Virus genome (UHGV): UHGV-0205583
Strand: one strand, 5' to 3'
Length of the DNA: 52,029 nucleotides
Source: a virus
The notes under the pieces were generated by a model. It was not told where the DNA came from, searched no databases, and was given only the letters and a program-made list of their open reading frames with translations. Every line of letters begins with the position of its first letter. The stretch's first letter is position 1. This document shows positions 1,603 to 49,057 of the stretch, in pieces. A program made the translations under genes and the position numbers.

Positions 1603-1611
1603 GGAATCCCA

Positions 1612-5057: not shown

Positions 5058-5121
5058 CTTTTTAAAAAGCACCCATTCACCCGCCTCATTCGGCGGGTTT
5101 TTCATTTTTGGAGCACAATGT

Positions 5122-9140: not shown

Positions 9141-9320
9141 AGCAACCAGGTTCCTACAGCCGCGGCCAAGGAGCAGGGGATAGTCGGCGGTCGTCGCAGA
9201 GTGATGACCCCGTAGGTTGTCGAACGGGCGCGACGAATGCTTGCGAACGGCGCCACCCGGCAGCAGGTGGCTGATGTGACAGGCGTGGACGTGAAAACAA
9301 TCTACAAGTACCTCCCGGCG
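9141..9320 (+). pseudogene. remnant of serine recombinase (DNA invertase/resolvase) C-terminal HTH
   Basis: Translation ...GRRRVMTP*VVERARRMLANGATRQQVADVTGVDVKTIYKYLPAT* matches the resolvase/invertase C-terminal HTH consensus but carries an in-frame stop and no catalytic domain. Confidence 0.55.
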
Positions 9321-9403
9321 ACTTGAAGACAAAGATTTCACTACTTTTCCTGATATGTTACGTTTGGCTTAATCAATTCATTCTGCTTTGAAAACAGTTT
9401 GGT

Positions 9404-9826
9404 TTGTTCGTGAACGGTAAGAAAACAATAAGTTTTGAGCAATTTTTAACTATTAACAGCAATCTTGTTTCCATCTCAGATACATGGGCTGACTTGTGGG
9501 CGTTAATTTTTCACACGGGTTTAAGCGCTGGAAGGCTGCTGAGTATTCGATATGATGATATTGATGGTGACTTGATACTGATACGAAAACAGGGTCACCT
9601 GAAGGAGCTACGTGTTAAATCAACCCCTCCAGTAGAGGCGATGATTGCTCGTAGAAGAGAACGCTATCCAGAAGATGTTTATTTATTTCAGAGTCATTCT
9701 AACCGTGTGAAGTACCATCGCCGGCCGGTCACTATAATTGCTTTCAACGCCGCTTTACGTCGCGCCGCTAGATCATTACCAGACGTTAACGTAAGCAGTA
9801 GTAGCGCGAGAAACATACCGGACTAA
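9404..9826 (+). pseudogene. tyrosine recombinase (phage-integrase family) fragment
   Basis: The 140-aa ORF has a box-I-like segment (LIFHTGLSAGRLLSIRYDDIDGD) but lacks the C-terminal HxxR...Y catalytic box. It lies among decayed recombinase repeats. Confidence 0.4.
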
Positions 9827-9837
9827 GCGCCTGTCCA

Positions 9838-9903
9838 GTAGCGTGTGGCCGATGTGACAGGCGTGGGAGTGAAGACGATTTACAAATATTTGCCAGTACA
9901 ATA
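9838..9903 (+). repeat. second degenerate copy of the invertase HTH-coding segment (VADVTGVGVKTIYKYLP)
   Basis: About 85% identical over roughly 45 bp to 9272..9318. Confidence 0.6.
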
Positions 9904-10045
9904 CGGCGATAAAAAATCCCCTTGAGCAGGCACACTCAAGGGGAAAATACTACATAACATCATTGCTGTGTGCGTCTTTGCGCTCATCTATCTTCCAAGA
10001 AGATGCCTAAAGCTTCCAGATATTTCTGGTCTGAGCAGTTAAAAC

Positions 10046-10110
10046 ATTGGGTCGGTAGCCGATGTAATAGGAGGGGTGCAGACGATTTATAAATATTTTC
10101 CAGCCGGTTA
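10046..10110 (+). repeat. third, more decayed copy of the invertase HTH-coding segment (VADVIGGVQTIYKYFP)
   Basis: Visible alignment to 9272..9318 and 9850..9897. Confidence 0.5.
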
Positions 10111-10334
10111 AGTTTGCTCACCTGCGAACCGTATGCAAGAGATCGCAGGTGAGCAATTTGCTATGAAGGCATTGCCATAGCTGAAAAATTTTAACCTCGC
10201 ATTGTTCGCAAAACCATCAAACAGCTAAGGCCAGAAAACACTTTCAGACTAACCTTACTCGTTACATCAATGTGTTACGGCAATGACAAAAATTGATAGC
10301 CAGAACCTATATTGATCTGTCGCCCTGTTAAAAC

Positions 10335-10354
10335 TACTGTATATAAAAACAGTG
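10335..10354. promoter_or_regulatory. LexA (SOS) box upstream of umuD
   Basis: TACTGTATATAAAAACAGTG fits CTGT-N8-ACAG perfectly and lies 20 nt upstream of the umuD ATG. Confidence 0.85.
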
Positions 10355-10374
10355 TTAATCTGAGCGAGTCAATT

Positions 10375-10794
10375 ATGCAGTTTTACACGCCCGTTGAGTT
10401 ACGTGAGATCATGCTGATCCCGTTGTACAGTGACCTTGTGCAATGTGGTTTTCCAAGCCCTGCACAGGATTACGTTGAGCAACGCATCGATCTGAACGAG
10501 TTGCTCGTTAACCACCCCAGTGCGACGTATTTTGTCAAAGCCGCCGGCGACAGCATGAAGGATGCCGGCATAGGAGAAGGTGATCTTCTTGTTGTGGATA
10601 GCTCAAGGACAGCAGTTCATGGCGATATCGTTATCGCTGCAGTGGATGGGGAATTCACCGTTAAGAAGCTGCAGCTGCATCCGCGGGTTCAGCTTAACCC
10701 AATGAACCCTGCATATTCGCCGATAGTCGTCGGTAGTGAGGACACTCTCGACGTGTTCGGGGTGGTTACGTACATCATCAAATCAGCTGGCTGA
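10375..10794 (+). CDS. umuD: DNA polymerase V subunit UmuD (S24 peptidase)
   Basis: About 75% identity to E. coli UmuD by eye ([50 protein letters not shown]). The start was chosen at [12 protein letters not shown]. Confidence 0.9.
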
Positions 10795-10795
10795 G

Positions 10796-12061
10796 ATGTT
10801 TGCACTTTGCGATGTGAACTCATTTTACGCATCCTGCGAAACTGTTTTCCGTCCTGACCTGAAGGGGCGTCCGGTGGTCGTTCTGTCAAACAACGACGGC
10901 TGTGTGATCGCCCGCTCGCAAGAGGCGAAGCCCTTCGTCAAAATGGGCGAGCCTTATTTCAAGCAAAAGGACATGTTTCGCCGGCACGGTATTATCGCGT
11001 TTAGCAGCAACTATGAGCTTTATGCCGATATGTCCAACCGAGTGATGACAACGCTGGAGGAACTCTCTCCACGCTGCGAAATTTACAGTATTGATGAGGC
11101 ATTTTGCGACCTGACAGGAGTTCGGAATTGTCGCGACCTTACCGACTTTGGCAGGGAAATTCGCGAGACGGTTCTGCGCAGGACGCACCTCACGGTCGGT
11201 GTCGGCATAGCCCAGACTAAAACCCTGGCAAAGCTGGCCAATCACGCGGCGAAACAGTGGCAGCGACAGACCGGAGGAGTGGTGGATCTGTCTAATCTTG
11301 AAAGGCAGAGGAAGTTGATGGCTTTGCTGCCGGTGGATGAGGTCTGGGGCGTCGGGCGCCGTATTAGTAAAAAGCTGGAGGCCATGGGGATTAAAACGGT
11401 ACTGCAACTGGCGGATACCGATATCCGTTTTATCCGGAAGCATTTTAATGTGGTTCTGGAGCGAACTGTGCGGGAGCTGCGCGGAGAGCCATGTCTCGGT
11501 CTTGAGGAGTTCGCGCCGGTAAAGCAGGAGATTGTCTGTAGTCGCAGCTTTGGGCAGCGGATTTCCACCTACGAAGAGATGCGCCAGGCGATATGCAGCT
11601 ACGCCTCACGTGCAGCGGAGAAACTCCGTGGTGAGCATCAGTACTGCCGCTTTATCTCAGCATTCGTCAAAACCAGCCCCTTTGCGCTGAATGAACCGTA
11701 TTACGGGAACAGTGCATCGGTAAAGCTGCTAACGCCGACCCAGGACAGCCGGGACATCATCACCGCGGCGACGAAATGCCTCCATGCAATCTGGCGAGAC
11801 GGACATCGCTATCAGAAAGCAGGCGTGATGCTTGGTGATTTCTACAGCCAGGGCGTAGCGCAGCTCAACCTGTTTGATGACAACGCTCCACGGCAGAACA
11901 GCGAGAAGTTGATGGAAGTTCTCGATCATCTCAATGCGAAAGACGGACGGGGAACTCTGTATTTTGCAGGGCAGGGAATCCAGAGCGCCTGGCAGATGAA
12001 GCGGGAAATGCTATCGCCACGTTATACAACCCGGTTTTCAGATCTACCAGTTGTCACGTGA
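10796..12061 (+). CDS. umuC: DNA polymerase V catalytic subunit UmuC (Y-family polymerase)
   Basis: The N-terminus MFALCDVNSFYASCETVFRPDL is near-identical to E. coli UmuC over its length. The ATG lies 1 nt after the umuD stop. Confidence 0.9.
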   Translation: MFALCDVNSFYASCETVFRPDLKGRPVVVLSNNDGCVIARSQEAKPFVKMGEPYFKQKDMFRRHGIIAFSSNYELYADMSNRVMTTLEELSPRCEIYSIDEAFCDLTGVRNCRDLTDFGREIRETVLRRTHLTVGVGIAQTKTLAKLANHAAKQWQRQTGGVVDLSNLERQRKLMALLPVDEVWGVGRRISKKLEAMGIKTVLQLADTDIRFIRKHFNVVLERTVRELRGEPCLGLEEFAPVKQEIVCSRSFGQRISTYEEMRQAICSYASRAAEKLRGEHQYCRFISAFVKTSPFALNEPYYGNSASVKLLTPTQDSRDIITAATKCLHAIWRDGHRYQKAGVMLGDFYSQGVAQLNLFDDNAPRQNSEKLMEVLDHLNAKDGRGTLYFAGQGIQSAWQMKREMLSPRYTTRFSDLPVVT

Positions 12062-12725
12062 CAGGGTCGATTAGCTCTGCTCCCTGATTTTTCACATTAC
12101 CCACGGCGCGCGTCACGGCGTGCCAGATAAACTTGTCGGCGGGTGCAGCCCCGTCGACTGCTATCTCTTCAGCTTCCTTACCGCCTATATCCTGGCACAT
12201 CCATTCGCGCGCTGCCTCCGGTGACAAAACCAGTGGCCGGCGGTCGTGAATGTCGACCAGCCCCTGATCGGCCGCAGCGGTCACTATCAAAAACCCTTCG
12301 GCTTCGTCTCCGCGCTCGAATGGGACACTGCCGATCGCCGCCATGAAGATTGGCTGTCCGTCGGCACGATGAATGAAATAGGGCTGTTTCCTGTCGCCCT
12401 CGCGCTTCCATTCAAACCATCCATCGGCAAAGCAGATCGCTCGCCCGTGCTGCCACAGGGGTTTAAACATTCTGCTGCTGGCCGCGGTCTCAACCCTGGC
12501 ATTAATCAATGGCGGTTTATCCCACCACCCTGGAGCGTAACCCCAGTGAACCGGATCGAGGTGCAGCTGTTCGTCGCGTTCGCTCAGGAGCAAAACTTTA
12601 GTCCCCGGTGCCACGTTGTAACGTCCAATCGGCTCAGGGTCGTATGCGATGTCGCGCTCGGCTTCATCCGCCAGGTATGCCAGATATTCTTCACGGGTTT
12701 GTGATTGAGCAAAGCGTCCGCACAT
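12054..12725 (-). CDS. yedK: SOS-response-associated peptidase (SRAP/YedK family, abasic-site processing protein)
   Basis: 223 aa starting MCGRF, with the Cys2 nucleophile, and SRAP-family conservation. Convergent with umuC and overlapping it by 8 nt. Confidence 0.85.
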   Translation of the reverse strand: MCGRFAQSQTREEYLAYLADEAERDIAYDPEPIGRYNVAPGTKVLLLSERDEQLHLDPVHWGYAPGWWDKPPLINARVETAASSRMFKPLWQHGRAICFADGWFEWKREGDRKQPYFIHRADGQPIFMAAIGSVPFERGDEAEGFLIVTAAADQGLVDIHDRRPLVLSPEAAREWMCQDIGGKEAEEIAVDGAAPADKFIWHAVTRAVGNVKNQGAELIDPVT

Positions 12726-20560: not shown

Positions 20561-20950
20561 TTAGTTAGTGTCGCTAGCCTTAAATCGACCACGGAGATAT
20601 TTCTCAACATAATCATCGATTTCTTTTAGGCGGACTTCAAACGTATCAATCATTCTCTCTTGTTCAGCCTCAGGTAACTGCCTAAACAGACGTAACATTT
20701 TGCTCTCATTTGGCTTGAGGCCTGAATCTTCAGATACTTTCTCTCCAAGCAACCAAGTTACAGACACATTGGCAGCTTCCGCGAGGGCAATTGCGGACTT
20801 TTTACTGATTACTCCTTTCTTAAACCACCCATTCACCGCTTGAGGTGTAACTCCAGCAATGCGAGCCATATCCGCCTTGCTGATCCCTCTTTGAGTAATT
20901 TCTTCCAAACGAGCAATCAGTTGGTTGTTGAGTTCTTCAGTGTTTTTCAT
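20561..20950 (-). CDS. CI-type phage repressor (Xre HTH only, no S24 peptidase domain)
   Basis: 129 aa with an HTH (ISKADMARIAGVTPQAVNGWFKKG). Divergent from cro. No C-terminal Ser-Lys peptidase domain. Confidence 0.8.
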   Translation of the reverse strand: MKNTEELNNQLIARLEEITQRGISKADMARIAGVTPQAVNGWFKKGVISKKSAIALAEAANVSVTWLLGEKVSEDSGLKPNESKMLRLFRQLPEAEQERMIDTFEVRLKEIDDYVEKYLRGRFKASDTN

Positions 20951-20995
20951 AAGCCCATTGTAAAGGTTTAGTTTATAGTCACAATAAATTAAAAA

Positions 20996-21027
20996 TTTGC
21001 ATTGAATATAAACCTATGCTTTATTAT
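20996..21027 (+). promoter_or_regulatory. candidate pR/operator region (TTGCAT-N17-TTTATT) sharing a 19-mer with the pL side
   Basis: TTTGCATTGAATATAAACC here matches TTTGCATCTGTATAAATCC at 20436..20454 (reverse complement) in 15 of 19 positions. Confidence 0.4.
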
Positions 21028-21051
21028 GCCTAACTTAACGAGGAGATAGAT

Positions 21052-21267
21052 ATGACAGCCCTTGATAACGCAATTCGAGTAGCTGGCTCAGCCAATAAAT
21101 TAGCATCAACGCTTGGAGTAAGCGGCATGGCAGTAAGTCAGTGGAAAACAAAAGGTATTGTGCCTTCATCGCGAGTTTTACAGGTTTTTAATGCAACGGG
21201 CGTTACGCCTCATGAATTACGTCCTGATCTATATCCGAATCCGACGGATGGAATACCTAAGGAGTGA
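21052..21267 (+). CDS. Cro/YdaS-like HTH regulator
   Basis: 71 aa with an HTH (LASTLGVSGMAVSQWKTKG). Divergent from cI. Confidence 0.7.
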   Translation: MTALDNAIRVAGSANKLASTLGVSGMAVSQWKTKGIVPSSRVLQVFNATGVTPHELRPDLYPNPTDGIPKE

Positions 21268-21269
21268 CC

Positions 21270-21824
21270 ATGCAAACCACCTCTTTTGAAAATCATACTC
21301 CGGTGATGAGTATGCAACTGAAAACGGAAAATCAGTATTTGCCCCGTCGGCGTGACGGCAAGAAATGCCGAGCCATTTTGGCCGCCGTTCAGGAATGGGA
21401 GTCCTCATTACCTGGGCGTGCGCAAGACCACGTCGCGCAGCTGGTGGCCGAACAGTGGGAGAAACAAAACGGGCGCGGTATCAGCGTCAATAAACAAAAT
21501 CTGTATCGCTACCTGAAAAACGAGGGCGGTTCAGAGAAGTACACCAGTTATGTCATCCAGCTTTCGGCGGCGATCGCTGATGCAATGCCGATAGAGATCG
21601 CGCGCAAACATGGCCTAAAACATGGCTTAACTGAAACTGAGCTGGTGGCCAATGCAATCAAAGAATGCAGCGAAGCGCACCAGGCCAAGTTACTTGGCGC
21701 ACCTCTGCAGAAACTAGAGCGTGAAATACGGGAAGCTGCAATTGCACTTTTTAACATGCTCCCTGCAGATGCGGCGGGACCACTACTGGCGAGCATCAGC
21801 GCCGTAGCGCCGCAATTTTTTTAA
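21270..21824 (+). CDS. CII/YdaT-like early regulatory protein
   Basis: An AAGGAG SD sits 6 nt before the ATG at 21270. The position after cro is the same as in the Rac ydaS-ydaT arrangement. Confidence 0.45.
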   Translation: MQTTSFENHTPVMSMQLKTENQYLPRRRDGKKCRAILAAVQEWESSLPGRAQDHVAQLVAEQWEKQNGRGISVNKQNLYRYLKNEGGSEKYTSYVIQLSAAIADAMPIEIARKHGLKHGLTETELVANAIKECSEAHQAKLLGAPLQKLEREIREAAIALFNMLPADAAGPLLASISAVAPQFF

Positions 21825-21847
21825 TCGAGTTTTGACAATGACCACCA
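21823..21847 (+). promoter_or_regulatory. copy 3 of junction motif (TAA-TCGAGTTTTGACAATGACCACCAGCA)
   Basis: Starts at the stop codon of the upstream gene. Its ATG at 21838 opens a 61-codon out-of-frame ORF across the rep start. Confidence 0.6.
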
Positions 21848-21875
21848 GCACCAGCTGGTTAATAAGAGGTTTCAG

Positions 21876-22859
21876 ATGGCCCGCATCAGAACAGTTAAAC
21901 CTGAATTCTGGACAGATGAGAAGGTGGTGGAATGTTCAATTCCAGCGCGTCTCCTGTTTATCGGGTTGTTCAACTTCGCCAACGATATGGGATGCCTTGA
22001 GCGTTCGCCAAAACGGTTGAAGATGCAAATCTTCCCTGCGGACGCGCTCGATTGCGAACCACTAATACAGGAACTGATTACTCATGGATTACTCACTGAG
22101 TATTCAGTGAATGATGTCTGCTATTTGCAGATTAAAGGTTTCCTTAAGCATCAAAAAATAAACAGGCCTTCGGCCTCAAAAATACCTCTTCCGCCAGAAT
22201 TCACTGAGTCTAAGGCAGGAAAGGAAGAAAAGAGAGCTCCTAATCAAGGAGGGCTCAGTGAGGACTCAGTGAATCCTCATGGAGGACTCACTGACGGAAA
22301 AGGAAGGGAAGGGAAGGGAAAAGGATCAAACCCCACTCTCTATGCGCAGGAGAGAAATTTTCCCCAGCAACCTCAGTATCTGCCTGGAGTGGATATTCCG
22401 ATCGGGAAATTCGCCATGCACGACCTTTGGCTGCCGTCACAGGACTGGCCGCGACTGGCTGCTACCTGGGGTATAGCGCTTCCCGAACCGGCATACCTGC
22501 CGACAGAGCTGGCAGAGTTCACCGCGTACTGGAAATCCGAGGGGAAAGTGTTCACTCAGATTCAGTGGGAGCAGAAATTTGCCCGCAGCGTGATAAGTGC
22601 CAGAGCCAAATCTAAACCGCAACCAGCAACCGGAGGTAAAGACCATGCAGGAATTCAACCAGTTAACACCGCATCCCGGGCAGTTCAGGAAATTCAGGCA
22701 GCCAGAGAACGCTGGGAAAAGCAAAACGGACTTGCTGGCGGCGGATACGGCATGGCGGCTATGGACAGTCATGGGGGAAATATTTTCGAACCGGTGGACC
22801 CAGAAGAACGGGGCGGCGCCCTCGGATATGTGGATTGCCCAGATCGGATCGATGAGTGA
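21876..22859 (+). CDS. phage replication-initiation protein (YdaU/O-like), putative
   Basis: 327 aa with an AGAGG SD and a basic N-terminal domain, at the position of the Rac ydaU gene. The C-terminal third overlaps the next ORF. Confidence 0.5.
   Translation: MARIRTVKPEFWTDEKVVECSIPARLLFIGLFNFANDMGCLERSPKRLKMQIFPADALDCEPLIQELITHGLLTEYSVNDVCYLQIKGFLKHQKINRPSASKIPLPPEFTESKAGKEEKRAPNQGGLSEDSVNPHGGLTDGKGREGKGKGSNPTLYAQERNFPQQPQYLPGVDIPIGKFAMHDLWLPSQDWPRLAATWGIALPEPAYLPTELAEFTAYWKSEGKVFTQIQWEQKFARSVISARAKSKPQPATGGKDHAGIQPVNTASRAVQEIQAARERWEKQNGLAGGGYGMAAMDSHGGNIFEPVDPEERGGALGYVDCPDRIDE
22299..22323. repeat. (GGGAA)n pentanucleotide microsatellite inside the replication gene
   Basis: AAGGAAGGGAAGGGAAGGGAAAAGG encodes GKGREGKGKGS. 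Confidence 0.8.
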
Positions 22860-23316
22860 AGCCCAGATTACCCTGGTCTGCAGTCAGTGCATGGAGCGCT
22901 GCGCCGCGGGTAACACATGGCCACCGGATCTGGCTGAATTCGTTGCTCTGGTATCTGCCAGCGGTGCTAACCCGTTCAATCTGACATCCGAATCTATAAT
23001 GGCGGAATACAAGCGCTGGAGGAATGAGTCTTACCGATACTCGGGCAGCGACAAATACCCATGGAAACAGGATGTTCTCTATCACATTTGCATTGAGATG
23101 CGCAGAACCGGAGTTGAGAGGAACCTGACGGAGGGAGAGCTGAAAAAACTGGCAGAAAACTTACTCACGAAATGGACCAAACACCTGGCTAACGGGTTTT
23201 CGATTCCGCCAATTCGTCAGCAGTTGGCAGCACCGAGACATCCAGCAGGACCGACGCCAGCGCAGATTCTGATGGAAGAGTACAAACGCCGCAAGGCGGC
23301 AGGTTTAACCAAGTAA
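22645..23316 (+). CDS. hypothetical replication-associated protein
   Basis: 224 aa from an ATG with a GGAGG SD. No Walker A motif, so not DnaC-like. Overlaps the 3' end of the previous ORF. Confidence 0.4.
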   Translation: MQEFNQLTPHPGQFRKFRQPENAGKSKTDLLAADTAWRLWTVMGEIFSNRWTQKNGAAPSDMWIAQIGSMSEAQITLVCSQCMERCAAGNTWPPDLAEFVALVSASGANPFNLTSESIMAEYKRWRNESYRYSGSDKYPWKQDVLYHICIEMRRTGVERNLTEGELKKLAENLLTKWTKHLANGFSIPPIRQQLAAPRHPAGPTPAQILMEEYKRRKAAGLTK

Positions 23317-23317
23317 A

Positions 23318-23337
23318 CGAGTTTTGACCATGACCAA
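23318..23337 (+). promoter_or_regulatory. copy 4 of junction motif (TAA-ACGAGTTTTGACCATGACCAAAC)
   Basis: Lies directly after the stop of the upstream gene. Its ATG at 23330 is the start of the next gene. Confidence 0.6.
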
Positions 23338-23770
23338 ACAATCAAAAACCAAAGTAACCAAAGCGCAGATGGTGCTTGCCATCGTTAGCCGGACGCCAGA
23401 ATGCGTCCTGCAGGATGTCTGCGATGCGCTGGACTTGCAAGCCAGTACGGCAGGTAACTTGCTGCGGCAGCTCCATGCCGCGGGAAAACTCCATCGTACC
23501 CATAACGGTTGCCAGTATGTCTACCGAGTTGTTGCAGGCGTTGAGGTTCCCGATGTTGCCCTGCCGCAGGCTGTAACACAATTATCTGAAGAGGATGTGA
23601 AAAAAATCCAGGACGCACTGGCCCTGGCGAAGACGCTGGAAGACAAAAAGCTGTGGCGCCGGGCTGCGACTGTTTACACATCGATGCTTGGGATGACTAC
23701 AACAGCAAACGAACTCTGGTTGCTTGCCAAAATGCGCAACCGCTGCCTGCGCAATGCGACGAGGTGCTGA
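23330..23770 (+). CDS. hypothetical winged-helix-like protein
   Basis: 147 aa with no clear SD. The start codon is embedded in junction motif copy 4. Confidence 0.4.
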   Translation: MTKQSKTKVTKAQMVLAIVSRTPECVLQDVCDALDLQASTAGNLLRQLHAAGKLHRTHNGCQYVYRVVAGVEVPDVALPQAVTQLSEEDVKKIQDALALAKTLEDKKLWRRAATVYTSMLGMTTTANELWLLAKMRNRCLRNATRC

Positions 23771-24002
23771 TTATGCCTAAAATGGAATCAACAGCATCTG
23801 GTACGGGATGTCAAAGCTAAGTTCAAATATTCCGGGATGAGGCAAAGCTGAGATGTCCGCTGAGTGCCAGGAGCAGACATTAAGGAAATTGTGATATTTT
23901 GAGTGATGACAAGCCGTTTCCACTCAATTTTTAATTCTCAACACGCCCACTGCTGCAACTCCAGAAAATGATAGATATAATGTTCACACATTTACTTTAT
24001 TA

Positions 24003-24236
24003 ATGCTTCTCGCTGAGCGTTGCCGCATAACGCTCGGTGGATAGGCATTGATGCGTTTCAAAGCTCTGCTAAACACTGCCTGTGAGGCATAGCCGAGGCG
24101 GAGAGCGACTGTGTAAATTAAGTTCTTATCGTGAATAATTAAGTGGCCAGCGAGACGCATTCGTACTTCTCTTGCATAGCGTTGGACACGCTGCTGAACG
24201 GAGTAATGGTTGTGACGGCCATTGCCACCTCAGTCG
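24003..24236 (-). pseudogene. AraC-family regulator C-terminal fragment
   Basis: Translation ...YAREVRMRLAGHLIIHDKNLIYTVALRLGYASQAVFSRALKRINAYPPSVMRQ matches the AraC second HTH. There is no upstream start, and a stop precedes it in frame. Confidence 0.5.
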
Positions 24237-24717
24237 CGGCACTGACCCCAAGAAGAAGTCATTTGTTGCGATGACAAGTGGCTTGGAAAACTATATAGAC
24301 GTGATGAGATCTCAATGGGTATTGCTCACAGCCTTGAAAGAGGAGGTCTTCTTCGAAAAAAAATCAATGGCCTAGTTTTGATTGATAGCTACGCCCTGAT
24401 CAATAGGTTGGGCTTCGGTGAAGCCCGGAGTGATTTGTGCAATGGGTGTTTGCAGAAAATTGAGAATGCTTAGGCCGAATGACCAAAAATCAGAAAGTCT
24501 TTTTGGGGGCGGGAGCGCCATCTTCTGTAAAGCTTGCGGTCCATATGATGGCATACTGGCTTGTGGCGCGACTCTTCTGTCACTAGGCAGCGTACTGTGT
24601 ACTAAGCATTACGTCCAGACTCGTCTTAAGAAGATGGCACTCATTCCTCGAGGTCAAGAAGCGCGGAAAAAAGACGAAGCGATGCCAGGAGGACAATGGT
24701 CAGTGATGATCCAGTAG

Positions 24718-24984
24718 TCAGCTGGTTTGTATGCGATCATAATATTCGATGATTTGCAGCGCAACTGCAGCAATTTGCACAGCTTCTTCTCTGCTGGTAC
24801 CGGCTGCTTTTCCCCCGAAACGGTCATGGAGAACGGCCTGATGAAACTCTCCCACTTCCTCCCCAAGGATAGCCCCCCAGATGAAAGGATCCAGATTGCG
24901 GTCTGCTCCCCATTTTGCATCCTGCCGTTGCATTTCAGCTAACACATCTTTCAGTGCTTCGGTTTCTTGATGTTTATATTTCAT
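24718..24984 (-). CDS. MazG-like nucleotide pyrophosphohydrolase domain protein
   Basis: 88 aa with an EEVGE...EE helix pair (GAILGEEVGEFHQAV...REEAVQIAAVALQI). Confidence 0.5.
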   Translation of the reverse strand: MKYKHQETEALKDVLAEMQRQDAKWGADRNLDPFIWGAILGEEVGEFHQAVLHDRFGGKAAGTSREEAVQIAAVALQIIEYYDRIQTS

Positions 24985-25129
24985 GATTCCCGTTACGTAC
25001 CCGTCATTTTATGCGCTATCTTAAACATTAAATCTATGCTGAGTCCATTGCGATGACGCATCGCATTTTGTGATTGAACGGTAAGTTTGCTATAAACGTA
25101 GCAATGACAAAAATTTAAAGTGGATAATC

Positions 25130-25456
25130 TTGTACATTACCTTTCAAAGCAAAAAGTTAAGAGCTCTTTGTGAGAGTATGCACAATGCGAATGAGAACCT
25201 TGGTGAGAAACTAGCATCCAAGCTACGCGCACGCCTTTCCGATATCACCGTGGCGGACAATATTTTAGCATTGCCCGTCGGTTCGCCGGAGGTATGCTTT
25301 GAGGAAGGGGAAGAGTGTATTACAATTACCCTTTTGGGCGATAAAAAAATGGGATTTGTTTGTGGGAATACGATTCAGCCAAAAAATCAAGACAATACGA
25401 TTGACTGGTCCCAGGTCAGCCGGATACGGTTAGTGTTCATAGGTGATGTGAAATGA
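25130..25456 (+). CDS. RelE/HigB-like putative toxin
   Basis: 108 aa. The N-terminal part resembles the plasmid-maintenance killer family (ITFQSKKLRAL...). Its stop overlaps the start of the Xre-peptidase gene (ATGA). Confidence 0.4.
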   Translation: MYITFQSKKLRALCESMHNANENLGEKLASKLRARLSDITVADNILALPVGSPEVCFEEGEECITITLLGDKKMGFVCGNTIQPKNQDNTIDWSQVSRIRLVFIGDVK

Positions 25457-26535
25457 TGGTAACGCAGGACTTCCAGCCTGACTGGGTATCTCCACCCGGT
25501 GATACGATTATAGATCTGATGGATGAACACGGAATTTCTGATGAGGAGTTGAGTAAAAAAATAGGCTTGTCCCTTGATCGGGGTCAGCAACTTCTTGAAG
25601 GGAAACTCCGACTGAATCCGTCCCTGGCCGACAAGCTTGAAGAGCTGTTCAGTGTGTCGACGGACTTCTGGATCAGGCGCGAAGATGCTTATCGCAGGCA
25701 AATAGAACATATCCAGAAAGTTAACAGCGACTGGCTGGAATCATTGCCCGTACGCGATATGATGGAGTTTGGCTGGATCCCGAAAACCACAACGCGGGAA
25801 AGTAAATTCCGACACTGTCTGTCGTTCTTCGGTATACACTCCGTGAGTGAGTTTTTTCACAAAATACATTCTGATGCTCCACTGGTCGCCTTTCGTAAAT
25901 CATTGAATCTGACGACTGAGCCTGTCGCTGATCTGGTATGGCTGACCCGTGCAGAACAGTTGAGTGCAAAACAGGTCTGCGCAGAATGGAATAAAAAGGC
26001 GCTGCAGGCGCTTTTGCCGGAGCTTCGTAGAGCAACAAACGAACCTGATATGGGAATTTTTATCCCTCACATTCGGCGGCTTCTCGCGACTGCCGGGGTT
26101 TCGCTGATCGTGTTGCCAACGCCCAAGGGATGCCGGGCCAGTGGTGCCACCTGCTTTTTCACTCCAGACCGCGCCACGCTGGTCATGAGTTTCCGCTATC
26201 TTACCGATGACCATTTCTGGTTTACGCTGTTTCATGAGATTGGGCATCTCATTCTGCACGAGGCAGTGCAGGTTCGTGCGGAAGGTAAAGAAGGCCTGTC
26301 GACAGAAGAGGAAAAAGAAGCCGATACATTTGCTGTAGACGTCCTCATTCCTGAGGAATACAGGCAGCAACTCAGGCGCTATGGTGTTCGGCACTGGAGG
26401 GACATCGTCCGCACGGCCCGTAAAATAGGCGTATCAAAAGGGATTGTTCTCGGGTACTTACAACATGAGGGCAACATTCCTTTTTCTCACCTTAACCGGC
26501 TTAAGGTGAGATACAGTAAAGAAGACATTGTATAA
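25453..26535 (+). CDS. Xre-family HTH fused to ImmA/IrrE (COG2856) zinc metallopeptidase
   Basis: N-terminal HTH (ISDEELSKKIGLSLDRGQQLLEGK) and a C-terminal HEIGH zinc motif (FTLFHEIGHLILHE...EADTFA). Confidence 0.75.
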   Translation: MMVTQDFQPDWVSPPGDTIIDLMDEHGISDEELSKKIGLSLDRGQQLLEGKLRLNPSLADKLEELFSVSTDFWIRREDAYRRQIEHIQKVNSDWLESLPVRDMMEFGWIPKTTTRESKFRHCLSFFGIHSVSEFFHKIHSDAPLVAFRKSLNLTTEPVADLVWLTRAEQLSAKQVCAEWNKKALQALLPELRRATNEPDMGIFIPHIRRLLATAGVSLIVLPTPKGCRASGATCFFTPDRATLVMSFRYLTDDHFWFTLFHEIGHLILHEAVQVRAEGKEGLSTEEEKEADTFAVDVLIPEEYRQQLRRYGVRHWRDIVRTARKIGVSKGIVLGYLQHEGNIPFSHLNRLKVRYSKEDIV

Positions 26536-26537
26536 GT

Positions 26538-27482
26538 TCAGCCGCCAAAATAGACGTAGCGATCAGGTGACTTCTGCCAGTTACACAGCGCGTCTTCAAT
26601 GACCTGCATCCTGAGATATGGTGCAGGGATAATTTCGGCAAGTTCAGCCAGTTTATCATTCAGAGTCTCTAGCCTATCACCTGCGCTCCGGCTGTTACTA
26701 AACAGCAGCCGACTCCCCTGAAGAGGGCCAGTAGCTCCCTTCAAAAAAGCATGCCCCGGTTCTGCCTCGATGAGTCCGGTTTTTCTTAGCATAGTCAGGT
26801 AATCAAATCGGGCGGTTCGTCCGAATGAAACCACCGCATTCAGGCCTGAATACAGCAATTCGAAAAGAGTAGCAGGTGTTGCCGCGAGGCTCCTTGCTTC
26901 TGCAAACCGGGCCTCGTGGCTGTATGTTGCACCAATAAATCCGAGATATGAACGAAAAACGACAGGTATAGAACGACGTGAATGATATTTTTTCGTTTCA
27001 TATTTGCGGTGGTTACCATACTGTCTTAGACTGCTATGTAGGGTCAGCTCATCAGAAACGCTGGCAAACCACTGTTCAAATGCATCAAAGTCATCAGTTA
27101 TGGCATCCCATGTCCACGTCTGGGTACCTAGTCCACTGTAAATATCGCGGCACAAAACCCAGCCTGTTTTACTACTCCGGCCAAAATGCGTGGCCAGAAA
27201 AACCAGCCAGCAGGCTTCGTCATAGTTGTTTTCACGCAGATGCAGACACGCAGCACGAAGAGGATCAAATAAATCTGAGTTTGGCTCTTTTCTTAGCGGA
27301 TTCATATAATCGGTTCGTGATGTCAGCGTTGACATATAGCGAATGCGGCGAATACTGTCAATAATCTGAAAGGCTAATACATTATAGTGAGCCGCAGAAC
27401 TCAGTCCGTTTAGGATATGTTTATCGCGACTGAAGTTTTGAAGAGCGGCGACCAACTGGCTTGCCTGACTGTGTCTGTTCAT
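26538..27482 (-). CDS. hypothetical protein, operon partner of the thymidylate-synthase-like gene
   Basis: 314 aa whose start overlaps the ThyA-like stop (ATGA at 27482). No family assigned. Confidence 0.5.
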   Translation of the reverse strand: MNRHSQASQLVAALQNFSRDKHILNGLSSAAHYNVLAFQIIDSIRRIRYMSTLTSRTDYMNPLRKEPNSDLFDPLRAACLHLRENNYDEACWLVFLATHFGRSSKTGWVLCRDIYSGLGTQTWTWDAITDDFDAFEQWFASVSDELTLHSSLRQYGNHRKYETKKYHSRRSIPVVFRSYLGFIGATYSHEARFAEARSLAATPATLFELLYSGLNAVVSFGRTARFDYLTMLRKTGLIEAEPGHAFLKGATGPLQGSRLLFSNSRSAGDRLETLNDKLAELAEIIPAPYLRMQVIEDALCNWQKSPDRYVYFGG

Positions 27483-28717
27483 TATATTTTCCCGTCAAAA
27501 ATAAATCGGTATTCCTGATTATTCAACGCAGTCAGCTCCTGACGGGCCAGCTCGTTGTGTGCCGACGTATGTGAACGTAACAAAAAATGGACTTTTATCA
27601 CGCGCAGAAGATCCTTCCAGTAGTCACTCAAGGGCGTAGTATCGATATTAAATTCCTTGTTTTCCCGCAGAGCCTTTTCTGCTTCAAGGATGACTGTAAT
27701 GTCCTTTAAGGATTGAATTTCGGGCATATCACCCATCACCGGCAAGGTACTCATAAAGCCTTCTTGTTGTAGCGCTTTTACTTGTTCAAAATGTTCTTCA
27801 TAGATATGGAGGCTTGAGACGAAGTGATGATAATACCCCAGTTTGCATCCGGTGAGGCGGGCGACCAGTTCCTGCAACATCGTGAAGGAGAACACATCAT
27901 GGGGTAAGCCCATAAAGGCATCGTTAGAGCGCATACAGACAAAAAGATGCAATGCATCTTGTCTGACAATAAATTGCAACGATATAGTGCACGGAATATC
28001 GGCATATTCTGTCTGCTCTGGATTACCCGTCACCAGATCTGAGGCATCAAACAGTTGTATCAGCGCGCGTCGAGTAGTTCTTTTCTCCTGCAGCAGACTG
28101 ATGACATTTTCCAACTGATTATACAGCCCGTGCATACTAAATAATCTCGGACCGTATCCCCCGTGTATTCTGCCGTCGGATTCAGCGTATTTTACGTAGC
28201 GAGGTATGAAGTGCCGGATGAAATCGAGATCGTTCTGGGCTGAGAGGTACCATAGCAATTCCCCCAGACAGCTGACAATTTTACCGCGGGATTCTGTCCT
28301 ACTTATTCTGCGGCGAGGATCGGTGAGAATCAGGTAGGCTCCCAGAATTTCAATATTTGCTCCTTTAGTGGGAGTATTCCAGAGTCCGCCAGTAAGGATC
28401 GCCTGATGGACATCGTTTAACAGATCGTCAACACATTCAGCCGTCACCAGAAGAGTCATAAACTGCCTGTTATATAATGAATGTAACAAATCATTACCAC
28501 TAGTGCGATAAATAGTCAACATGCCATTAGTAAAAACAGGGCTATAACCGCTATGACACATATCATCAGGTGCGAGGTTTGACACCCATGTTTCCTCCAT
28601 TCCCTCTGGAAGCAAAAAATGTTCACGTAGAATAAGAACTGAGGGACGCAGACGCATGCAGGCCACTCGCCAGGGTATTCCTCCAAATGAACTGGCCGGT
28701 TTCCTAATATCAGCCAT
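27482..28717 (-). CDS. thymidylate synthase superfamily enzyme (ThyA-like / candidate dNMP hydroxymethylase) with N- and C-terminal extensions
   Basis: Aligns by eye to E. coli ThyA across its core blocks (LGELLWYLS, YGPRLFSMHG, RRALIQLFD, and the catalytic IPCTISLQFIVRQDALHLFVCMRSNDAFMGLPHDVFSFTMLQ). 411 aa versus 264 aa for ThyA. Confidence 0.75.
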   Translation of the reverse strand: MADIRKPASSFGGIPWRVACMRLRPSVLILREHFLLPEGMEETWVSNLAPDDMCHSGYSPVFTNGMLTIYRTSGNDLLHSLYNRQFMTLLVTAECVDDLLNDVHQAILTGGLWNTPTKGANIEILGAYLILTDPRRRISRTESRGKIVSCLGELLWYLSAQNDLDFIRHFIPRYVKYAESDGRIHGGYGPRLFSMHGLYNQLENVISLLQEKRTTRRALIQLFDASDLVTGNPEQTEYADIPCTISLQFIVRQDALHLFVCMRSNDAFMGLPHDVFSFTMLQELVARLTGCKLGYYHHFVSSLHIYEEHFEQVKALQQEGFMSTLPVMGDMPEIQSLKDITVILEAEKALRENKEFNIDTTPLSDYWKDLLRVIKVHFLLRSHTSAHNELARQELTALNNQEYRFIFDGKI

Positions 28718-28750
28718 TAAAATAGCGCTGTAAACTTCATTACCAAATGC

Positions 28751-28818
28751 GGCGCGCCTGTAAGGGCCTGACTACAGGTTTAAACACTGTGCAACCACAA
28801 GTCCTAGGTCCGCTCTTC
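28751..28818. other. cluster of rare restriction sites: AscI (28751), PmeI (28778), AvrII (28803), SapI (28812)
   Basis: Two 8-bp sites, a 6-bp site and a type IIS site lie within 68 bp. Short GC-rich inverted repeats follow at 28807..28832 and 28851..28872. Confidence 0.7.
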
Positions 28819-29045
28819 GCTCATAGCGGACCTCCAAATCAGTTAGTTTGTCCGCTCTGTGCCAAGAGCGGAATCTGGAACGCCAGAGGTAGCAACGTTT
28901 CTTATCAAAGGTGTTGATCACCACAAAAATGACTGTATCCCTGTGATAGCGGATTTCGTCCTTTGTGGAGAAAAGATCAATCTAAACATGAGCATGGGTT
29001 AGCGAAAAGTGGCATTAAACGCTTGAACATTTCACCTAACAAGTA

Positions 29046-29065
29046 TACTGTTTATTTATACAGTA
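29046..29065. promoter_or_regulatory. LexA (SOS) box upstream of dinI homologue
   Basis: TACTGTTTATTTATACAGTA fits CTGT-N8-ACAG perfectly and lies 20 nt upstream of the ATG. Confidence 0.85.
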
Positions 29066-29084
29066 CTTGCGTGAGGAGCTAGTT

Positions 29085-29318
29085 ATGAAAGTGGAAATCA
29101 CAATTGATCGCCAAAAAAAATTGCCGGATGGCGCTGTGCCTGCTCTGGAGAAGGAGCTACTGCGGCGATTGGATCAAAACTTTAATAACTGCAGTCTTGT
29201 GATTCGTCGGGCCAGCTCCGATGGTTTGACCGTGCTTGGTGGAATGGACGGAGATAAAAAACGTATTGAGGAAATCCTGCAGGACACCTGGGAAAGCGCT
29301 GATGACTGGTTTTGTTAA
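29085..29318 (+). CDS. dinI: DinI-family DNA-damage-inducible protein
   Basis: High identity to E. coli DinI by eye (EVTI...LP.GA..AL..EL.RR, RIEEILQDTWESADDWF). Confidence 0.85.
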   Translation: MKVEITIDRQKKLPDGAVPALEKELLRRLDQNFNNCSLVIRRASSDGLTVLGGMDGDKKRIEEILQDTWESADDWFC

Positions 29319-29361
29319 GTTGAGGTCCATTGGCTTGCCTGGTTTATTTTGGGGATTTGGC

Positions 29362-29620
29362 TGTGAGTAAAAAACAAGAAATGCCGAACACCGGCTATGC
29401 AATTATCAGATGCGATGATGGGGTGATCGTTGCTCGTCTGACATCCTTTCCTGTGTCTGAGCGCGCTCTGATGTACCGGCGCGGAGACACTGTTTCGTTT
29501 ATGCCTTTGCAGCCGGATGAGATAGTGGGGACTCTCTCTCTTTTTTCACAGATGATTGAAAAGGCTAAGTCTGGAGTTGGTTACCAGGTTCCCCCTGGTT
29601 CTGTTACAATCCCGTCATAG
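29362..29620 (+). CDS. hypothetical protein co-transcribed with dinI (candidate antirepressor)
   Basis: About 80-86 aa, directly downstream of dinI in the LexA-boxed operon. Start is GTG at 29362 or ATG at 29378. Confidence 0.35.
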
Positions 29621-29660
29621 GCCTGAACAACCTATACCTGCTGCGTCGCGGAGAGAAACC

Positions 29661-30053
29661 ATGACGCAAACCCCCGAAGTATCAAAATCCCATCAGACTG
29701 GTGCTCCTTCATCGAGCGCCGGTTTGCTTTCGTCTTCAAAACTAACTTTTCGACAGCAGGAAGTTTTCGATCTGCTGGTGGCCTACATCAATCAGCATGG
29801 CTACCCACCTACGCTATCTGAGCTGGCCGATATGCTCGGCGTTAGCTCGTCTAATGCTGTCCTGTTGCATCTGCGTGCGTTAGAGAGAAAAAATTTTATA
29901 AAACTCTCTCGCCGTGTCTCCAGAGGAATTTCCATCGTCGGGCGAAAGGAGCCTGTGCTCGCCGTGCAGCTGCTGCAGGAAATGATCGCTGAAGAACCCG
30001 GCGCGCGTGAAAGAGCGATTGAGTTTTTACGACTGTTCGGTGATCAGCCATGA
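29661..30053 (+). CDS. LexA N-terminal DNA-binding-domain-only protein
   Basis: Residues 25-95 align to LexA 1-70 (LTxRQQEVFDL...G.PPT..E.A..LG..S.NA...HL.AL.RK..I....SRGI). No S24 peptidase domain follows. Confidence 0.6.
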   Translation: MTQTPEVSKSHQTGAPSSSAGLLSSSKLTFRQQEVFDLLVAYINQHGYPPTLSELADMLGVSSSNAVLLHLRALERKNFIKLSRRVSRGISIVGRKEPVLAVQLLQEMIAEEPGARERAIEFLRLFGDQP

Positions 30054-30253
30054 AGAAAAGTTGGTTTTTACACGAGCAACTTTCAGAGGCTGAAGCTACA
30101 GAGCTGGTGGAGCGATACCGTAAAAATAACTTTGTGGTTGAGAAAAGCTTGTCCAGAGACTTTGCATCGTGGGAGATCCGCGTGCTGTTGCCGGAATCGA
30201 AGAAGCCGCCACGGATTGACAGGACCTACATACAGAAGATGTGGAGGGACTGA
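30050..30253 (+). CDS. hypothetical small protein
   Basis: 67-aa ORF overlapping both neighbouring genes in the operon. Confidence 0.3.
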   Translation: MKKSWFLHEQLSEAEATELVERYRKNNFVVEKSLSRDFASWEIRVLLPESKKPPRIDRTYIQKMWRD

Positions 30254-31284
30254 TGCGAGCTTTGCTTAACGTGGATATTGCACGCCATCTTGGAATTGTG
30301 CTGCTTAAGCCGGGTAGTGAATTAATGCCGTTATTCGGTGCCGGCCGAGTTCTTGTGGAAATACCGCCGGCAAGCATGAAAAAGATACCCTGCGGGCGTC
30401 TTCCTAATGCCCGGCAGCCGTTGCGGGATGATATGGGGCTCAGACCATTTTTCATGAAGAAGGCAGTTATCACTGCGGCTGGTGGTGTTAGTGCTTTAGA
30501 GTCATGGTTGCGCCGGCAGGTTAAAAACTGTCAGTGGACACATTCCGATTACCATCACCATGAGCTCGTCCCGTTTCGCCATTCGACGGGTGTAATAATC
30601 GCATGCTGGCACTGTGATAATGAGCTGAAAAACCAAACAGAACAAACCCTCGATCAACTGGTAGGTGTTAATAACGCTGACTGGGTAATCGACACTGCCC
30701 GCATCGCGCTTGGTCTGGACGCTCAGCGCTCATTGTCACTGGCGGAGCTATGCTGGTGGGCGGTAGGCGCCGGGATTGGCGATGAAATTACAGAAGAAAT
30801 GGCGCGCCGATCCCTGCGTATTAAAGACGATGGCATTAAATCGATTTACAGGGAGAGTGAAATTGTTCCGTCGGTACCGGCCACCAGTATTCTTTCTCCC
30901 CGTCTCGAAAAAACAATCAAGCCAACGGCAATAACAACGCCGGGCAAACCTCTGGTTCCTGTGAACGTCGATCCTGTTGCTCCGGCGACACTATTCGCGA
31001 GACCTAAGCGGAGCCGATGGTTATCAGCTGACTTTATCTCATGGGTTAAAAAACAGCCGTGTATGTGCTGTGGGCAGCCTGCAGATGATGCACATCATCT
31101 TATTGGCTGGGGGCAGGGCGGCGTAGGCACCAAGGCCCACGATATTTTTACGATCCCATTATGCCGCAAGCACCACCGCGCTTTGCACCATGACCCTGCC
31201 GCTTTTGAGCGTGAATACGGCACCCAGCCGGTATTAATTATTAAATTGCTGGACCGGGCATACGCGCTCGGCGTTCTGGCGTAG
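30241..31284 (+). CDS. DUF968-like prophage protein with C-terminal Cys/His (HNH-like) cluster
   Basis: C-terminal CMCCGQPADDAHHL...LCRKHHRALHH. Sits at the position of the YdfU-type gene that precedes Q in the Qin prophage. Confidence 0.45.
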   Translation: MEGLMRALLNVDIARHLGIVLLKPGSELMPLFGAGRVLVEIPPASMKKIPCGRLPNARQPLRDDMGLRPFFMKKAVITAAGGVSALESWLRRQVKNCQWTHSDYHHHELVPFRHSTGVIIACWHCDNELKNQTEQTLDQLVGVNNADWVIDTARIALGLDAQRSLSLAELCWWAVGAGIGDEITEEMARRSLRIKDDGIKSIYRESEIVPSVPATSILSPRLEKTIKPTAITTPGKPLVPVNVDPVAPATLFARPKRSRWLSADFISWVKKQPCMCCGQPADDAHHLIGWGQGGVGTKAHDIFTIPLCRKHHRALHHDPAAFEREYGTQPVLIIKLLDRAYALGVLA

Positions 31285-31300
31285 TAAGGAGAAGAACAGA

Positions 31301-31903
31301 ATGACACCACGTCAACGCCGTCTGCACCGTGCAGGATTAGCAACAGTTGCCGCCGCCCCGCGCAAAAGCTGGCTGGGCCGATTCACTCCCCTTAATGGTA
31401 TTCAGTCCGCCTGGATAAAATCTCTGCTTACTGTTTGGGGGGAAGGGATGAGAGGAGGTGCAGCCCCGCGTAAACCATCAGGACATTCATGCTGGCGAGG
31501 TATGAAGGGTGATCACTGGTCAGATAGAGCATTAGAGCGCTTTACGGCAGCAATCGAGCAGGCAAGGAGTGAAGGCTATCGCGGGCGGCAGGCACTAAGC
31601 AGGGCGCATGCCATTTTGTGGCCAAAAACTCCAACTGTTGCCATTGACGCTGCGATCACTGAGGATGATGTTGAATTTGTTGAACGATGTGTACTGGCGA
31701 TATTTGAAACGGGTGATCCTGTTTATCTCGTTGGCGTTAACTATTACACCACCCGCAAAAAAATCTCAGACATAACACGGGAAATACAGCTGGTGGCTCC
31801 ATGGTTAACAGACAGTGAGGCCCGGAAAAGAGTGCGCTGGTGCCTTGAAATATTCAGAGCAAAAGCTTTCCTTTCTGTTCATAAGGCGATTCATGCGGAT
31901 TAG
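31301..31903 (+). CDS. candidate late-gene regulator (Q-position protein)
   Basis: 200 aa. Assignment is positional only (DUF968, then this gene, then terminator, late promoter and lysis genes). No family motif recognised. Confidence 0.3.
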   Translation: MTPRQRRLHRAGLATVAAAPRKSWLGRFTPLNGIQSAWIKSLLTVWGEGMRGGAAPRKPSGHSCWRGMKGDHWSDRALERFTAAIEQARSEGYRGRQALSRAHAILWPKTPTVAIDAAITEDDVEFVERCVLAIFETGDPVYLVGVNYYTTRKKISDITREIQLVAPWLTDSEARKRVRWCLEIFRAKAFLSVHKAIHAD

Positions 31904-32023
31904 CAAAAAGTGCTATGTTGCCTTTTTGGTATTGAAAATGGGCCAGAAAGTTAGATAATTCCTTCATGCTTGGCAGAGCTGCGCCACTCGGCAGCGACAA
32001 AAAGCGACAATCTGAATATAACG

Positions 32024-32048
32024 AAAACCCCGCCCGTGCGGGGTTTTT
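32024..32048. terminator. bidirectional rho-independent terminator
   Basis: AAAA-CCCCGC-ccgt-GCGGGG-TTTTT lies between two convergent genes. Confidence 0.7.
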
Positions 32049-32146
32049 GCTTTCCGGCGATATGACAGGGGTATTCGCGAGATGCGCTGCATCAATACCC
32101 CTGTCATATCGTCGTATTGCATACGCAATCTCACATGCTTCAGCAT

Positions 32147-49038: not shown

Positions 49039-49057
49039 ATTGCCCGGAGAAAAGCAC

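Follow-up and report, generated by a model that had tools for sequence, protein, structure and literature searches.

How might a temperate phage be induced by DNA damage when its immunity repressor carries no self-cleavage domain? The question is raised by the virus genome UHGV-0205583, a stretch of 52,029 nucleotides (nt), referred to here as the window. The window represents a Klebsiella-type lambdoid prophage, and its positions 28900-31950 are 96-97% identical to the Klebsiella phages Kp4865-4 and ST846-OXA48phi9.1. An original prediction had pointed to a cI-type repressor of 129 amino acids (aa) with a helix-turn-helix (HTH) and no S24 autopeptidase domain, and to a perfect LexA box directly ahead of a DinI homologue. 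It took the small unannotated open reading frame (ORF) behind dinI as a candidate antirepressor, and likened the whole to the dinI-antirepressor operons of the Gifsy prophages. These claims were borne out by our analysis with small corrections of coordinates, and we consider it likely, on comparative sequence evidence, that the window encodes a repressor-antirepressor induction switch of the Gifsy-1 (GfoR/GfoA) type (Table 1). The mechanism and architecture of this switch have been in print since 2011, and the circuit is less novel than the original prediction assumed. What is new is an uncharacterized and unannotated antirepressor subfamily, a variant set of downstream genes, and the recurrence of one antirepressor across many immunity types.

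The sole Pfam match of the repressor above the cut-off was HTH_3 (1.4e-8), alongside two weak HTH-type matches below the curated cut-offs, and NCBIfam assigned the protein to the DicA subfamily (2.9e-9). The repressor is homologous to GfoR over its full length (45% identity, E 7e-40), and also resembles GftR/GtgR (29% identity, E 4e-8) and DicA (29% identity, E 3e-11). No S24 domain was found in the repressor, either by Pfam or in a tblastn search of the window with lambda CI and Escherichia coli LexA; the latter detected S24-type sequence only at a umuD-like gene (10312-10794). In the intergenic part of the immunity region (20951-21051), a repeat finder returned no operators, and just short AT-rich palindromes were visible by eye.

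The pattern TACTGT-N8-ACAGTA has a single exact match in the window, and 100 dinucleotide-preserving shuffles gave none. Of the 20 positions of the E. coli consensus, 18 agree with the sequence found, TACTGTTTATTTATACAGTA, and the two that differ fall within the AT spacer; the perfect LexA box at 29046-29065 is not a chance occurrence. The box ends 19 nt ahead of the dinI start codon (ATG 29085, preceded by GAGGAG), which equals the distance tabulated for the dinI genes of Gifsy-1, -2 and -3. Read from the sequence, the left arm of the box coincides with the -10 element of a putative SOS promoter. The same arrangement of -35 element, spacer and -10 element within the box is kept in Gifsy-2 and in the phages SPN3UB, SEN34 and Chris1, and the DNA from the -35 element to the dinI ATG can be aligned between the window, these four and pAEv1818. 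The curated record of phage 186 shows a comparable overlap, the -10 element of promoter p95 coinciding with bases 1-6 of its LexA box.

The unannotated ORF of 80-96 aa that had been predicted after dinI is present, and ends at 29620. Its in-frame starts are TTG 29330, TTG 29357, GTG 29363 and ATG 29381. Because the GTG and a purine-rich Shine-Dalgarno sequence 6-7 nt upstream are invariant across five diverged phages, and because database gene calls for the homologues are mostly 81-85 aa long, the antirepressor gene most likely occupies 29363-29620 and encodes 85 aa. This moves the start of 29362 given in the original prediction by 1 nt. The TTG at 29330, giving 96 aa, is a possible alternative.

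To place the ORF among known antirepressors, reference sequences were needed that appear only in the figures of the Gifsy study (PMC3121763), and these were rebuilt via its primer table. GftA was taken from Gifsy-2 (11464-11685), FsoA from Fels-1, and GfoR from a prophage locus, L009, that also holds the rebuilt gfoA allele. The GfoA reference (82 aa, TTG start) is an allele from 37 Salmonella prophage contigs fished with a gfoA primer, which matched the published gfoA primers at 21 of 21 and 38 of 40 nt; it is not the ATCC14028 sequence, in which GfoA is, judged by the primer, probably 5 residues shorter at its end. Against this reference the ORF product showed 37% identity over nearly the full length (E 7e-13), which supports its candidacy as an antirepressor. 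It is 58% identical to SPN3UB_0059, which sits between dinI and irsA. The two PHROG families also cross-match, GfoA hitting phrog_1813, the family of the ORF, at 3.5e-11, and the ORF hitting phrog_340, the family of GfoA, at 1e-4. The ORF, its phage homologues, GfoA, FsoA and GftA form a colinear family alignment with invariant R45, L60 and G84, and the ORF shares a non-ATG start with gftA and gfoA. Neither Pfam nor NCBIfam returned a match. Placement of the ORF in the GftA, Rem or Tum families was rejected, as pairwise and profile comparisons were negative.

The closest characterized relatives have been studied genetically. The Gifsy repressors GfoR, GftR and GfhR are short and are not cleaved upon induction, which requires LexA cleavage and is blocked by the lexA(Ind-)/lexA3 allele (Lemire, Figueroa-Bossi & Bossi 2011, PMC3121763). 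A LexA box stands ahead of the dinI homologue, and the small ORF between dinI and irsA (gftA, gfoA or gfhA, with GUG or UUG starts) alone induces the prophage, its product being an antirepressor that binds the repressor; loss of dinI or irsA has no effect on induction, for which the small ORF is required (PMC3121763). Homologues of GfoR/GtgR, together with the dinI region, were noted in Klebsiella prophages already in that study (PMC3121763).

The window resembles Gifsy-1 (GfoR/GfoA) and Gifsy-3 (GfhR/GfhA) in its short HTH repressor, in its small antirepressor, in the promoter-overlapping LexA box ahead of a dinI homologue within alignable DNA, and in the position of the module between the replication genes upstream and the nin/Q region downstream. 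As in the Gifsy phages, gene direction is unchanged through to Q. Since both partners are homologous to their Gifsy counterparts, and the promoter, box and leader DNA can be aligned, the proposed likeness is supported beyond mere resemblance. Unlike Gifsy-1, the window belongs to another host genus and its antirepressor to another subfamily (phrog_1813 rather than phrog_340). A truncated LexA paralogue, a 67-aa ORF and a DUF968 gene follow the antirepressor where Gifsy has irsA and ninG (by PHROG comparison, IrsA is NinB/Orf-like), and minus-strand cargo genes, with no terminator, lie directly upstream of the box. The operon logic is also that of GftR(GtgR)/GftA of Gifsy-2 and of FsoA of Fels-1. 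GftA and FsoA fit colinearly into the family alignment, although the pairwise similarity of the ORF to GftA was not significant; FsoA, unlike the window ORF, is encoded in the left operon, and its phage has a cleavable CI.

The likely course of induction would be as follows. In the lysogen, the HTH repressor would keep the early promoters shut, while host LexA would occupy the box overlapping the -10 element of a separate promoter approximately 8 kb from the immunity region. On DNA damage, active RecA would stimulate LexA self-cleavage and the dinI operon would be transcribed. The second product of the operon, the 85-aa GfoA-family protein, would then bind the repressor and remove it from its operators without cleavage, allowing the early genes to be expressed and lytic growth to begin. 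We infer four elements of this scheme by analogy with the Gifsy prophages: LexA binding, non-cleavage of the repressor, contact between antirepressor and repressor, and the cognate pairing of the two in this phage.

Directly observed are the sequence elements, the order in which they stand and their homology to characterized proteins, as well as their co-inheritance in related genomes. SPN3UB, SEN34, Chris1 and pAEv1818 each carry a homologue of the ORF immediately 3' of dinI and a LexA box 15-19 nt ahead of the dinI ATG, and a homologous short repressor is present in every complete phage record with an ORF homologue, these four included. A scan of IMG/VR for homologues of the ORF gave 331 confirmed loci, of which the best 80 (ORF identity 86-99%) were analysed, with about 20 kb fetched for each and a 10-kb flank examined. 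In these 80 loci, dinI was found wherever upstream sequence was available, except in L116, and the LexA box lies 18-19 nt ahead of the dinI ATG in 72 of 77 loci, the remaining 5 having an insertion adjoining the box. A short repressor (118-151 aa, apart from a few truncated copies) was identified in 63 of the 80 loci, and the C-terminal domain of lambda CI, used as a query, found no counterpart in any of the 80. The 17 loci with no repressor match mostly had short flanks, or large cargo inserts that pushed the immunity region past the 10-kb flank; one of the 17 has plasmid-like surroundings. All 80 loci carry the LexA paralogue, the 67-aa ORF and the DUF968 gene, and irsA is absent from the window and from every one of them.

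Two exceptions to this pattern are worth describing in their own right. In L116 (~9300-10246), the LexA box and the antirepressor gene are kept while the search for dinI gave no match, and the box may directly precede the antirepressor. The insertion seen in 5 of 77 loci (L055, 7739-9703; L105, 7748-9703; L104; L111; L112) starts with GTGCGCC and ends with CCCTACCGCGAC, and lies in the dinI leader, abutting the 3' end of the LexA-box palindrome. Its length is about 1.9 kb in L055 and L105, the two of the five in which the 5' junction, like the 3' junction, falls inside the fetched locus, and in both the box is intact. A reverse-transcriptase-like ORF is found within the insertion in L104, and the whole looks like group II intron homing next to a palindrome.

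Several observations weigh against a Gifsy-type switch. The identity between the ORF product and GfoA is moderate, and similarity to GftA (pairwise), Rem and Tum was not detectable. All 142 of 142 homologue protein clusters in the databases, which come from Klebsiella, Enterobacter, Citrobacter, Leclercia and Kluyvera, are labelled 'hypothetical protein'. An AlphaFold2 model built on a 40-sequence alignment had a mean predicted local distance difference test score of 45.9, a low-confidence result with a beta-beta-beta-beta-alpha outline. The experimental basis lies with the Gifsy proteins, and the function of phrog_1813, and of its member in this phage, is predicted from them. A consensus scanner made no call for the dinI promoter, which we propose from its conservation and from the annotation of phage 186 p95. 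No plus-strand terminator was found ahead of the box in 28600-29046, whereas the Gifsy phages have one. Terminator-like GC hairpins with T runs are visible upstream of the box in Gifsy-2, SEN34, Chris1 and pAEv1818. The gene upstream of the box in the window is divergent from dinI, and the terminator is an accessory feature with no functional requirement. Most importantly, a near-identical antirepressor (86-99%) occurs alongside at least six repressor types with very different HTH halves, and cognate pairing in any single phage is therefore not guaranteed. This is the weakest link of the proposed switch.

The variety of repressors underlies the most serious rival explanation, in which the ORF is a genuine but non-cognate GfoA-family antirepressor that acts mainly in trans on the repressors of co-resident prophages, the phage itself depending on another signal or on an antirepressor from another prophage. 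The immunity region and the dinI module, 8 kb apart, recombine independently, and cross-talk in trans is documented for GfoA on GfhR and for FsoA on GftR (PMC3121763), with which the finding of one antirepressor among many immunity types fits by analogy. However, exactly this repressor is paired with this antirepressor in 22 of the 63 repressor-positive loci. The closest characterized relatives, GfoR and GfoA, are a proven pair and occur together in L009. No second gene of the antirepressor family was found in the window, or in the fetched ~20 kb of any of the 80 loci. The repressors themselves offer a way in which one antirepressor could serve several immunities. In the repressor types designated T2, T4 and T6, C-terminal identity is 66-72% against 24-26% in the N-terminal part, which suggests that the conserved C-terminal module is the target of the antirepressor. 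The idea that antirepressor type tracks this module was tested and was partly supported: it holds for T2, T4 and T6 but not for T3 and T5, which have only 36-38% C-terminal identity and accompany the same antirepressor, a further point against the switch as we propose it. On balance, we judge a non-cognate role to be unlikely.

DinI acts on RecA filaments, and the ORF has no annotated domain, both of which could be accommodated if the dinI-ORF pair were an SOS-regulated accessory ('moron') unit, modulating RecA or the SOS response of the host, with no role in repressor inactivation. We regard this as very improbable, given that the ORF is homologous to a protein that alone induces Gifsy-1, that it is strictly associated with short repressors lacking S24, and that deletion of dinI in Gifsy left induction unaffected while the small ORF was required (PMC3121763).

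A final possibility is removal of the short repressor by proteolysis, through a host protease or a phage-encoded HTH-Peptidase_M78 (ImmA/IrrE-like) protein (25453-26535), encoded in the stretch from the immunity region to dinI; in other mobile elements, HTH repressors are inactivated by proteases of the ImmA type. We consider this the least probable of the explanations, and the peptidase as an alternative inducer was rejected as variable cargo: its gene occurs in 1 of 80 loci, and in 1 of 22 with the identical repressor, whereas all have the antirepressor module; it lies 4.5 kb from the repressor and carries an HTH of its own, and GfoR, GftR and GfhR were shown to be uncleaved (PMC3121763).

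Table 1. Features of the proposed induction circuit and of its surroundings in UHGV-0205583
Feature	Position	Strand	Evidence and remarks
Immunity repressor, 129 aa	20561-20950	minus	N-terminal HTH and C-terminal helical module; GfoR/GftR/DicA family
Cro-like gene	21052-21267	plus	Divergent from repressor; Pfam YdaS_toxin 1.9e-13, P22_Cro 1.5e-7; phrog_35
cII-like/YdaT-like regulator	21264-21824	plus	phrog_163 'CII-like transcriptional activator' 4.1e-39; Pfam YdaT
Putative SOS promoter	29023-29051	plus	-35 TTGAAC 29023-29028; 17-nt spacer; -10 TACTGT 29046-29051
LexA box TACTGTTTATTTATACAGTA	29046-29065		Pattern TACTGT-N8-ACAGTA
dinI homologue, 77 aa	29085-29318	plus	First gene of SOS operon; Pfam DinI 1.3e-25; NCBIfam DinI 4.6e-26; phrog_189
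Candidate antirepressor, 85 aa, GfoA family	29363-29620	plus	Conserved GTG start; phrog_1813, sister to phrog_340
LexA paralogue, DNA-binding domain only, 130 aa	29661-30053	plus	Pfam LexA_DNA_bind 3e-20; no cleavage domain
Stable hairpin with interrupted U tract	29694-29726	plus	-20.4 kcal/mol, z -4.4; within first 25 codons of LexA paralogue gene
Conserved ORF, 67 aa	30050-30253	plus	phrog_1212 1.5e-24
YdfU/DUF968 protein	30253-31284	plus	Orf-like domain and HNH; Pfam DUF968 9.2e-70; phrog_96
Q-like antiterminator	31301-31903	plus	phrog_753 9.4e-55
Late-promoter-like site	31932-31959	plus	TTGAAA-16-GATAAT; downstream of Q
Strong terminator hairpin	32024-32053	plus	After the late-promoter-like site

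Beyond the antirepressor, the window departs from the Gifsy gene order. The best start of the LexA paralogue is ATG 29661, after GGAGAG, and the protein can be aligned to residues 3-95 of LexA (PDB 1jhf). Its recognition helix reads SSNAVLLH, compared to SPNAAEEH in E. coli LexA. The two glutamates of the E. coli helix contribute to reading of the CTGT half-site; as they are absent from the paralogue, its specificity may differ. Literature on proteins of Gram-negative phages that consist of a LexA DNA-binding domain only was not found in the library searched. An unannotated reading frame homologous to the 67-aa ORF is visible between rem and ydfU of the Qin prophage. The DUF968 protein is 50% identical to E. 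coli Qin YdfU (E 2e-123), in an alignment that runs from the residue encoded by ATG 30253, which is probably the start of the gene. Proteins with DUF968 have been described as joining an Orf-like domain to an HNH domain (PMC4118853). As the DUF968 protein is YdfU-related and such proteins are described as Orf-HNH fusions, the genes 3' of the antirepressor appear to be equivalents of the nin region. Downstream of Q, the late-promoter-like site and the terminator that follows it (31932-32053) are where Q would be expected to act; in the vicinity of this late promoter, no convincing palindrome was seen.

The original prediction also held that the operon continues into the LexA paralogue, DUF968 and Q genes, placing part of late-gene regulation under SOS control. 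The genes are indeed present and closely packed. Co-transcription from dinI to Q is plausible, since consecutive genes have gaps or overlaps of no more than 44 nt (no more than 11 nt except those flanking the antirepressor ORF). No canonical plus-strand intrinsic terminator was found between the antirepressor ORF and Q, and the Gifsy phages share the uniform gene direction as far as Q. As an addition to the proposed switch, a LexA-controlled transcript that extends across the genes of the LexA paralogue and DUF968 into Q, coupling SOS directly to late-gene timing, is conceivable, though we doubt it. Just 3' of the antirepressor there is a stable hairpin whose U tract is partial, in phage 186 tum is followed at the equivalent place by a partial terminator, and early Q expression without replication would be wasteful. 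The core stem of the hairpin is kept in one diverged lineage with one-sided changes only (covariation term ~0), and the structure may serve to attenuate the SOS transcript.

The linker that follows the antirepressor (29621-29665; GGCCTGAAC...GGAGA...ATG.CGCA) is shared by the window with Gifsy-2 and SPN3UB, and in looser form with Qin; the stretches compared in these relatives are L001 (11686-11770), L002 (2735-2776) and L045 (4590-4650, minus strand). The gene that follows it varies, being the LexA paralogue, irsA or an unannotated ORF, and the linker resembles a boundary of mosaic recombination that coincides exactly with a start codon.

Three further systems invite comparison. The Qin prophage combines a short DicA-type repressor (29% identity to that of the window) with a small antirepressor gene, rem, upstream of ydfU and a Q-like gene, and shares the conserved linker ahead of the next gene. 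Rem occupies the corresponding place, and its inducing signal is stated to be unknown (Ragunathan et al. 2023, PMC10448788). BLASTP gave no alignment between the ORF and Rem, the hhalign probability was 0.4%, and no dinI or LexA box was seen upstream of rem on reading the Qin sequence.

In phage 186 (Tum/CI), as in the window, the LexA box forms the -10 element of the SOS promoter, a DinI-like moiety is encoded, and induction proceeds by an antirepressor. The original prediction had drawn this parallel, and it is valid for one half of Tum. The window DinI matches residues 71-141, the C-terminal half of Tum (30% identity, E 4e-12), whereas the ORF is unlike the N-terminal antirepressor half (hhalign probability 0.15%), leaving only an analogy. 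Tum is a single fused polypeptide and 186 CI belongs to another family, while dinI in the window is a separate gene. For the LexA paralogue, the nearest functional parallel is gp6 of the Bacillus tectivirus GIL01, a truncated LexA homologue that is produced from an operon under SOS control and acts as an activator of the late promoter (Fornelos et al. 2018, PMC6182141). The paralogue resembles gp6 in being a DNA-binding domain only and, judged by gene spacing, a probable member of an SOS operon. It differs in that gp6 is a proven late-promoter activator from an unrelated host and virus type, and the two proteins showed zero pairwise similarity.

These parallels raise the more speculative and rather unlikely prospect that the SOS operon is a multi-output device, in which a broad-spectrum antirepressor, maybe acting via the C-terminal module of the repressors, is combined with an active LexA paralogue. 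The uncleavable paralogue may time the late genes in the manner of gp6, or may re-occupy promoters to give a pulse of antirepressor. If the antirepressor were indeed broad in spectrum, a single damaged cell would co-induce several Klebsiella prophages of differing immunity.

Several additional features were noted around these regulatory regions. Two adjoining hairpins with 8-bp stems and a common core CCGCT (GGTCCGCT...AGCGGACC and TCCGCTCT...AGAGCGGA) lie at 28807-28872, upstream of the SOS promoter in the space between the divergent genes; both lack a U tract. The sequence GCAAAAAGTGCTAT, at 31903-31916 upstream of the late promoter, is identical to a sequence upstream of the dinI -35 element in Gifsy-2 and SPN3UB. 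It was rejected as a shared regulatory motif, as one match against 0.35 expected is not significant and the sequence is absent at the Gifsy-2 late promoter.

The remainder of the window carries a variety of cargo. Another strong LexA box (TACTGTATATAAAAACAGTG, 10335-10354) stands 20 nt ahead of a umuD-like gene (10375-10794, Peptidase_S24 1.1e-29), which is followed by a umuC-like gene (10736-12061) and, on the minus strand, a SRAP/YedK-like gene (12054-12725). This region is SOS-regulated mutagenesis cargo adjoining the integrase, and provides an internal check on the box consensus. The slot between a PerC-like gene, which follows the replication genes, and the dinI box (23770-29045) is a cargo hot spot; in relatives it holds unrelated large genes (L079, 2196-6559; L083, 2315-8239; ORFs of 1166 and 1974 aa). 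Within this slot, a 108-aa ORF that matched no family runs into the start of the 360-aa HTH-Peptidase_M78 (IrrE/ImmA-like) protein (25130-26535 together), and the two may form a toxin-antitoxin or defence pair of variable cargo. On the minus strand at 26538-28717, a homologue of aGPT-Pplase3/amino-acid:DNA transferase (1.3e-89) adjoins a thymidylate-synthase-like protein. These genes are of the thymidine-hypermodification type, here in a temperate Klebsiella phage, and occur in 1 of the 80 related loci. No tRNA genes were found in the window. Judged by positions 1-7506 and 49040-52029, the 52-kb stretch looks like a circularly permuted, complete phage genome rather than a prophage with host flanks.

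The proposed switch assigns a function that can be tested to the 80-96-aa proteins of a widespread family that every source calls "hypothetical". It predicts that antibiotics that trigger the SOS response would induce these Klebsiella prophages via LexA, and not via repressor self-cleavage. Induction by this route would be reversible in principle, would be blocked by a non-cleavable LexA, and would be open to cross-talk among co-resident prophages. The occurrence of the same antirepressor across different immunity types represents a natural data set for mapping how antirepressors recognize their targets.

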